Source: Escherichia coli (GTDB lineage: Bacteria; Pseudomonadota; Gammaproteobacteria; Enterobacterales; Enterobacteriaceae). Taken from it: a stretch of DNA of 64,000 nucleotides. The position numbers are program-made. How positions within the stretch are numbered: position 1 is the first letter of the stretch; every line of letters starts with the position of its first letter. The stretch is taken from the NCBI RefSeq assembly GCF_048403405.1, contig NZ_CP183129.1, one strand, 5' to 3'. Shown here piece after piece: positions 658 to 3,600 of the stretch.

Positions 658-3600
658 TTATTTATTGGTGAGTACTACGTTCCATGGGTAAGCGTGCAGC
701 AAAAACCGTATTGACAGGGATGTGTTATTCAGTCGGCAGTGCTACGCGCCAGGGGAGCAGTTCGCCGACCCGGTTTATCGGCCAGTCGGCTATGACGTCA
801 AGGACATAGCGGAGGTAGCTTTCTGGCTCCACTCCGTTCAGTTTGCACGTCCCGATCAGGCTGTACAGCAGCGCTCCCCGCTCTCCTCCATGATCCGAAC
901 CGAAGAACAGGTAGTTTTTGCGGCCCAGACTGACCATCCGCAACGCATTTTCAGCGATGTTATTGTCCGCCTCAGCCCAGCCATCATCTGCATAGTACGT
1001 CAGCGCCGGCCACTGGTTCAGGGCGTATGCGAACGCTTTCGCCAGTTCTGAGTGTCGCGACAGGGTTTTCATCTTTTCACGCAGCCAGCTTTCCAGGGAT
1101 TTCAGCAGCGGTTTCGTTTTCAACTGACGTTCGGCAAGCCGCTGCTCCGCCGTCATTCCCCTTATCTCTGCCTCGATGGCGTACAGTTCGCCGATCCGTT
1201 TCAGCGCTTCCTCCGTCAGGGCTGACGGGGTGCGAACGTGCACATCGTGGATTTTACGGCGGGCGTGAGCCCAACAGGCGGCTTCCGTTATCCGGCCATC
1301 CCGGTACAGCTCGTTGAACCCGGCGTATGCATCCGCCTGCAGTACACCACTGAACCCCGCAAGATGGGTCTGCGGATGGATGCCTTTTCTGTCCGGGCTG
1401 TAAGCGAACCACACCGCCGGCGCCAGCGTTGACCCGGCGTTACGGTCGTCACGAACGTAGGTCCATAACCGCCCGGTCTTCGTTTTCTTATTGCCTGGCA
1501 ACAGCACCGGGACAGGCGTGTCATCAGCATGGAGCTTACCGTCAGTCAGCACATAGCCATGAAGCGCCTCTTCCAGCGGAGACAGCTGCCGGCAGCATGC
1601 ATCCACCCAGCCCGACAGCAGTGAACGGCTCAGCTCCACACCTTGCCGGCCGTATATTTCTGACTGGCGATACAGCGGGGTGTGCTCTGCATACTTCGAG
1701 GTCAGCACGCGGGCCAGCAGCCCCGGTCCGGCGATACCCCGCTCGATGGGCCGTGAAGGCGCGGGGGCCTGCACGATGGCATCGCACTGAGTACAGGCAT
1801 GCTTTTCACGTACCGTCCGGATAACCCGGAAGGCGCTGCGCATCAGCTCCAGCTGTTAGGCGGCATCCTCACCCAGATAGCTCAGCGAGCCTCCACATTC
1901 CGGGCAGCATGACGCTGCCGGCAGCAGCCGTTTTTCATCGCGGGGGAGTGATTCGGGGAACGGTTTGCGGGTGCGGGTTTGACGCAGCGGGCGCTGCACG
2001 GCCGGGTCGTCAACCCGACCGGTAAGGGTATCACTTTCTTTCTGAAGTGCCTTCAGGTCAGCTTCCATCTGTGCGATACGACGGGAGACTTTTTCGGAGC
2101 AGCTGCCGACGTTCATCCGGCGCAGCTTATCCAGCTGTGCCTGCAGATGGTCTATTTCGCGTTCACGCTCGTTCAGCTTTTCCAGCAGGGCACGGTTCAG
2201 CGCCTCCTGTTCGGCAAGGAGACGTTTCAGTGCATTGATATCGTCAGGAAGTGAGCTGCTCATACCGGGTATATTACCAGGCTCATTCAGCGTCGACCAG
2301 GATAAAGAGGCTTACAACATAGTCAGGGACGTAAGCAGTCTTTTAGGCTGCCGCCAGTCGATACCTTCCAGCAGCATCGCCAGCTGTGCCGGTGTGAGGA
2401 ACACTTTGCCATCCCGGGCTGACGGCCAGGCGAAGCGGCCGCGCTCCAGCCGTTTGGTCAGCAGACACAGTCCATCGCCGGTAGACCAGAGGAGCTTTAC
2501 CTGACTGCCATTACGCCCACGGAAGATAAAAACGTGACCTGACATCGGATCGTCTTTCAGCGTCGTCTGCACCTTTGCCGCCAGGCCGTTGAAGCCGTTT
2601 CTCATATCGGTGATGCCAGCGACCAGCCAGATCTTTGTCCCTGATGGTAATGGGATCAACGTTTGAGCTCCCGTATCAGCAGGTTCAGGATATTTTCGCT
2701 GATGGCACCATTCAGACGGAGTGATCCGTGCCGGAACGTCACTTCACAGCTGATATTGAGTGATTCAGGTGTCGCAGCAGCTACAGGTTGTGACCGGGGG
2801 GAGGTTGTAGGGACAACATCTTCGGCATCAAGTGTTATCGGGAGCAGCTCAGGCACGTTGTTTTCTGTTGTTGAAGGAGGACGTAGTTTTCCTTCGCGCC
2901 AGTACTGGCGCCACTTGAACAGCAAATTATCGTTGATCCCATGCTCACGAGCGAGTTGCGCTACGGAGATCTCTGGTCGATGCGAGAGTTCAACCATTTT
3001 GATTTTGAACTCAACGGGATAATTAGGGCTTTTTTTACGCACTGCGGTTAATGATTTCATGGATAGCGTCCACCATATTTGGTGTCCACTATTCTTTCAG
3101 GAATTTCAGGATCTGCCAGACGGTGCTGAGACGACGCTTACGAATCAGCACGGGGCTGACAACTGGAAAATCCTGCCGGGTGTACCGTTGTATGACACGA
3201 TTGTTATCGTCACTGGTGAGAGTGTGCGCAGGGATTATATGTCGGTATATGGCTATCCCGTGCCAACCACACCGTGGCTGAATACTGCTCCCGGTTTATT
3301 TATTGACGGCTATACATCGGCAGCAGCCAGTACTGTGCCTTCCCTGAGCCGGACACTGATTTATGACTATGAGCAGAACCCTGATTCCGGCAACAACGTG
3401 GTGGCGCTGGCAGCAAAAGCAGGATACAGCACATGGTGGATATCCAATCAGGGAAAACTGGGAGAGCATGACACACGCATCTCTGTTATTGCTTCTGATG
3501 CGGAGCATACCGTTTTCCTCAAGAAAGGCAGCTTCGCTTCCCGTAAAACGGATGACATGTTGTTGTTACAGGAAACAGAACGTGCACTGGCGGATAAATC

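Follow-up and report, generated by a model that had tools for sequence, protein, structure and literature searches.

An in-frame TAA codon interrupts tnpC of an ISEc22 insertion sequence in Escherichia coli and is an inherited allele in a lineage of uropathogenic-type strains

During analysis of a 64,000-nucleotide stretch of Escherichia coli DNA (one strand of contig NZ_CP183129.1, RefSeq assembly GCF_048403405.1; hereafter the window) we found that an ISEc22 insertion sequence of the IS66 family, located on the minus strand at positions 688-3141 (2454 bp), carries a tnpC gene broken by a single in-frame stop, TAA at codon 136 (1856-1858), where the ancestral codon was GAA (Glu). Taken as a whole, the evidence is best explained by an ISEc22 insertion that later acquired a nonsense mutation in tnpC and is now a fixed, vertically inherited pseudogene, an account in which we have high confidence. 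We document the mutation, its polarity, its distribution in the population and an intact orthologue; loss of the transposase and immobility of the element are what we infer from them. The feature is already on record, since the RefSeq annotation made with PGAP flags tnpC as a pseudogene ('pseudo, internal stop') in strains CFT073, DA33137 and 118UI, at coordinates corresponding to window positions 725-2263.

The element is labeled 'IS66-like element ISEc22 family' by PGAP, and we assigned it to ISEc22 by comparison with PGAP-annotated ISEc22 copies. It showed 98.9-99.1% DNA identity over about 2455 bp to two of these, L003 and L005, whose tnpC genes are intact, and identity reached 99.6% with the copy of strain HR5-1 (L006; NZ_AP041107.1). 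The alignments of copies L003, L004, and L005 to the window ran only from 684-688 to 3141, and the intact-tnpC copies L003 and L005 were flanked directly outside these aligned limits by perfect 8-bp target-site duplications (agatatgc and ccctgttt, respectively); we therefore set the limits of the element at 688-3141, which gives it termini of the form GTAAGCG..., as is characteristic of IS66/ISEc22. The terminal inverted repeat next to tnpC (688-715; GTAAGCGTGCAGCAAAAACCGTATTGAC) has one private mismatch (G>A at 703), and another private G>A lies at 716, just interior to the repeat, while the repeat next to tnpA (3114-3141) reads GTAAGCGTCGTCTCAGCACCGT... from the end. Matches between the two ends over 30 nt consequently number 16 in the window copy versus 18 in an intact copy. 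A pair returned by our repeat search (I1; 628-649 with 3120-3141) was considered as the IS ends and rejected because the intact copies align only from 688. Our search of the 64-kb window for a second ISEc22 copy found none.

The three genes lie on one strand in the order tnpA-tnpB-tnpC, and the end of tnpA overlaps the beginning of tnpB, as in other IS66 elements. Two of the three are intact: tnpA (2656-3060, minus strand) is a 134-aa open reading frame for an HTH accessory protein matching PF01527 (HTH_Tnp_1), and tnpB (2312-2659, minus strand) is a 115-aa frame for an IS66 Orf2-like accessory protein matching PF05717 (TnpB_IS66; E-value 1.6e-38), its TTG start overlapping the TGA stop of tnpA (TTGA, 2659-2656). 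The same proteins are annotated in intact copies, TnpA (WP_000839179.1) in HR5-1 and TnpB (WP_000612626.1) in both L005 and L006. ISEc22 copies with an intact tnpC share the 2454-bp length, the GTAAGCG... repeats and the gene order with the window copy, which departs from them in its TAA codon 136, its lack of a target-site duplication and its private substitutions at 703, 716 and 3096. A functional study of tnpA, tnpB and tnpC was reportedly carried out for IS679 by Han and colleagues in 2001. For IS66 itself, a tnpABC organization, a TnpC presumed to be the transposase and 8-bp duplications have been described (PMC6778807); the Agrobacterium tumefaciens element is alike in all three respects, although it is a different family member in a different host.

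The tnpC pseudogene (725-2263, minus strand) comprises 512 codons plus the terminal stop. Translation of the minus strand between 2263 and 722 gave one continuous frame with a single interruption, the TAA at 1856-1858 (tta on the plus strand); the mutated base is window position 1858, a C>A change on the plus strand and G>T on the coding strand. The sequence-only reading had described two TnpC reading frames in the same frame parted by one TAA, and this is what the continuous frame bears out. The N-terminal fragment (1856-2263, minus strand; 135 aa) holds the leucine-zipper region and the first CxxC of the zinc finger, and the C-terminal fragment (725-1843, minus strand; 372 aa counted from Met141), the product of which is putative, holds the second CxxC and the DDE domain. 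With the stop masked as X, Pfam searches recovered LZ_Tnp_IS66 (residues 39-110), zf-IS66 (118-161), DDE_Tnp_IS66 (175-461; E-value 1.7e-106) and DDE_Tnp_IS66_C (468-505), and PF13007, PF13005, PF03050 and PF13817 all scored above their curated cut-offs, which is the domain set of an IS66 TnpC. As encoded, these domains are split by the stop, which falls inside zf-IS66 with one CxxC pair on either side, and the uninterrupted transposase frame expected of a functional insertion sequence is absent.

We established the ancestral codon from three sources. Among the best 120 TnpC homologues in the protein database, codon 136 was Glu in 116, Pro in two and aligned with a gap in two. An 81-mer query covering window positions 1817-1897 was run against complete E. 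coli records both as found (TAA) and with position 1858 changed from A to C (GAA); exact matches numbered 81 for the TAA form and 588 for the GAA form. All four ISEc22 copies that we fetched (L003, L004, L005, and L006) had C at the equivalent of window position 1858, and hence GAA. Together, the Glu in homologues, the GAA in 588 records and the C in the four copies indicate that the mutation was GAA>TAA, a G>T transversion. Where the sequence-only reading had named 'Glu or Gln' for relatives at this position, the residue proved to be Glu, and its proposal that an IS66-family TnpC was inactivated by a point nonsense mutation is supported by the Pfam domains as well as by this codon in relatives.

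The right-hand junction, which joins the IS end to a fragment of a phosphoethanolamine-transferase gene, was present in 107 genomes, and one of these, HR5-1, gave a clean example fixing the direction of mutation. In HR5-1 an ISEc22 sits at the same position, in the same orientation and in the same target gene as in the window; it lies between the two halves of the phosphoethanolamine-transferase gene and is bordered at each end by the 8-bp duplication gaatcagc (L006 1099-1106 and 3561-3568). Codon 136 of its tnpC is GAA, and the protein is annotated as intact (WP_001530845.1), the only differences from the window TnpC being at residue 136 (Glu versus stop) and at residues 211 and 338. The two proteins also have Val52, Gln226, His235, and Gly236 in common. 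Val52 was seen in no other member of the 120-homologue set, 117 of which have Phe, and we had considered Phe52Val as a private degenerative change until the intact HR5-1 copy was found to carry Val52 too. Leu226Gln, Gln235His, and Asp236Gly were likewise considered as signs of decay and rejected, as they are present in HR5-1 and in part in intact proteins of ISEc8-type elements. These elements (clusters P0018 and P0019) have about 89% TnpC identity to the window and the same domain set; His235 and Gly236 occur in them, whereas Gln226 was found only in clusters P0002 and P0005. ISEc8-type elements are nonetheless distinct by sequence, and the 81-mer at the stop matched ISEc22-annotated copies best. 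About 14 genomes resembled the HR5-1-type sequence more closely than the TAA type (HR5-1 being the one genome among them in which codon 136 was read directly), and we found no genome combining the exact IS-and-junction sequence of the window with GAA.

Using L003-L005 as outgroups, we assigned six substitutions as derived in the window copy (703, 716, 1139, 1814, 1858, and 3096). Those at 1139 and 1814 leave the TnpC protein unchanged, that at 1858 is the nonsense change and that at 3096 is non-coding, upstream of tnpA; comparison with L003-L006 revealed no derived missense change or frameshift in the window copy. Inactivation had been proposed to be recent, and a count of six derived substitutions over 2454 bp, with no missense change among them, agrees with that proposal. 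The inactivation thus looks evolutionarily recent and would fit a young pseudogene, six changes being too few for a test of selection.

The insertion sequence differs from its HR5-1 counterpart by 0.4% (10 nucleotide differences in 2454 bp), whereas the adjoining phosphoethanolamine-transferase fragment (3142-3940) differs by about 6%; further along the flank, divergence from HR5-1 is patchy (IS versus whole flank, Fisher p 4e-11). Possible sources of this disparity are independent insertions at the same site, conversion of the IS or a mosaic flank. It is thus possible that the window and HR5-1 copies arose from separate insertions at this one site and are not strict orthologues; in that case the statement that the mutation came after the insertion would be weakened, while the GAA>TAA polarity would stand.

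The history that we favor, insertion followed by a nonsense mutation, runs as follows. An ISEc22 inserted into the phosphoethanolamine-transferase gene of a genomic island at tRNA-Phe, duplicating GAATCAGC, and a later G>T change, in a lineage that includes CFT073, ATCC 25922, and DA33137, converted tnpC codon 136 from GAA (Glu) to TAA. Judging from the sequence, translation would end past residue 135 and yield at most the zipper region and half a finger without the DDE catalytic domain, for whose synthesis reinitiation at Met141 would be needed; low-level readthrough of the UAA, or such reinitiation, may occur. Since TnpC is presumed to be the transposase of the IS66 family (PMC6778807; Pfam DDE domain) and is truncated here, the element should be non-autonomous and immobile. 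The TAA 81-mer had a single match in each of strains 118UI and Seattle 1946, indicating that neither genome has a second close tnpC that could provide transposase in trans. On this account the copy is a fixed, vertically inherited pseudogene. The DNA on its tnpC side was also rearranged, with loss of the duplication, and remnants of another IS66-family element and of an IS3-family element now abut it.

We weighed whether the broken gene might still act, the 135-aa zipper fragment or a reinitiated 372-aa DDE piece modulating other IS66-family elements in trans, for example as a dominant-negative partner. Both reading frames are still open, the intact tnpA and tnpB encode proteins annotated in HR5-1 as well (WP_000839179.1 and WP_000612626.1), there has been no missense change since the split from HR5-1, and an ATG (Met141) preceded by GGAG lies 12 nt past the stop. 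In addition, a 2601-base query matched seven places in DA33137 and nine in CFT073, which indicates that other IS66-family sequences coexist in those genomes. On the other hand, with only six derived substitutions the missing missense changes carry no statistical weight, the spacing from GGAG to the ATG is just 3 nt, the zinc finger is incomplete in both fragments, and young pseudogenes look exactly like this. We consider modulation in trans improbable, and we give the same slim chance to a joint scenario in which the tnpC pieces together with TnpA and TnpB modulate IS66-family elements and the identical insertion point in the window and HR5-1, whose target-gene alleles are about 6% diverged, marks a site-specific hot spot for ISEc22.

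Still less probable is that ISEc22 TnpC is normally made in two pieces, or by readthrough of a recoded stop, with the parts jointly functional. A separate N-terminal module does have precedent, in that the leucine-zipper domain is an independent reading frame in some Firmicutes members of the IS66 family (PMC3971601); these are distant relatives, however, and their split point differs from that of the window. Close homologues speak against such a design, since Glu prevails at codon 136 and most of the best 120 are undivided proteins about 512 aa long. Reference copies split at the same codon had been named as the finding that would point to a genuine two-frame arrangement, and we found none of the 120 to be split at or near codon 136. 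In otherwise identical 81-mers GAA was seven times more common than TAA, and the break lies within the zinc finger, between its CxxC pairs, rather than at a domain boundary. Recoding is made doubtful by the fact that UAA is recognized by both E. coli release factors. Among the best 60 matches, the TAA allele was found solely with one right-hand junction, and an allele confined to a single locus argues against a two-piece design for the element.

That the stop is a sequencing or assembly error in a genome that truly has GAA and an intact transposase, as had also been raised, has next to no probability: although a single-base departure from consensus is a typical signature of error, the exact TAA 81-mer occurs in 81 complete-genome records, PGAP reports the internal stop in the three strains that we inspected, and window positions 600-3200 recur with 100% identity in no fewer than 30 complete E. 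coli chromosomes, independently assembled in different laboratories and including four separate CFT073 records, several ATCC 25922 records, and DA33137. The stop change is real and is inherited in a lineage of uropathogenic-type strains. A suspected sequencing error of this sort could thus be excluded by comparison of complete genomes, without access to reads, and the TAA codon 136 combined with the GAATCAGC junction has a practical use as a stable lineage marker for CFT073/ATCC 25922-type strains.

The tnpC-side boundary of the element has a history of its own. One 8-bp copy of the target-site duplication survives on the tnpA side (3142-3149), matching the gaatcagc of HR5-1, and its partner is absent at the other end, where the flank reads ttccatgg (680-687). 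As duplications flank L003, L005, and the orthologous L006, their absence here reflects a later rearrangement of the window copy and not the type of element. In 118UI (L007, around position 1872) the TAA allele and the same right-hand junction are accompanied by a third left flank, which starts exactly at the equivalent of 688, and the window-type left junction was present in only 48 genomes. The lost duplication and the differing 118UI flank together indicate repeated rearrangement of this boundary. Possible routes are adjacent rearrangement mediated by an IS end and homologous recombination in which copies of IS66-family elements take part. There is precedent in Agrobacterium tumefaciens, where homologous recombination between IS66 copies leaves single copies with non-matching 8-bp flanks (PMC6778807), comparable to the missing duplication in the window. 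The earlier description of the element as 'otherwise intact' thus holds for tnpA, tnpB, and the presence of both ends, and fails for the duplication, which is gone, and for the tnpC-side end, which has the private substitutions at 703 and 716.

Abutting the ISEc22 end on this side are 60 bp left over from the end of another IS66-family element (628-687), which match ends annotated as ISEc23, IS682, and ISEc47 with 100% identity. This remnant repeats the ISEc22 end directly (D3; 75% identity), and in repeat searches it mimics the inverted-repeat partner of the far ISEc22 end. To its left is a frameshifted and truncated IS3-family integrase-core remnant (310-609, minus strand), recognized as an open reading frame with IS3-family matches and annotated in part as a fragment by PGAP.

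On the opposite side, the target of ISEc22 is represented by the 3' fragment of the phosphoethanolamine-transferase gene (3143-4123, plus strand; PGAP). Neighboring genes are also wrecked, and decay is general at this end of the island. The phosphoethanolamine-transferase gene, cut short by the IS, has an internal stop in HR5-1 and 118UI as well, and in CFT073 and DA33137 a cytochrome b gene just upstream of the window-equivalent region is frameshifted. The broken tnpC is an ordinary IS pseudogene, of a kind common in E. coli genomic islands. Another ISEc22 copy, L004 (1408-2947; plasmid p2_0.1 of strain 2/0), has GAA at codon 136 and is annotated as frameshifted, owing to a 1-bp insertion near the equivalent of window position 751, from which we take independent inactivation of tnpC in ISEc22 to be commonplace.

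Window positions 1-7295 are 100% identical to DA33137, and identity stops at 7295. In DA33137 about 4 kb separate the element from a tyrosine integrase located next to tRNA-Phe, and the same island carries hlyCA; we take it to be the pheV pathogenicity island of CFT073-type strains. ARAGORN reported no tRNA in the whole 64-kb window because the tRNA-Phe is truncated at 7295, only its 3' 51 nt being present (about 7245-7295). Beyond 7295 lies an integrative element of the SPI-7 type (dnaB-PI, parA, parB), indicating two islands in tandem at tRNA-Phe, and the junction between them occurs in 26 genomes.
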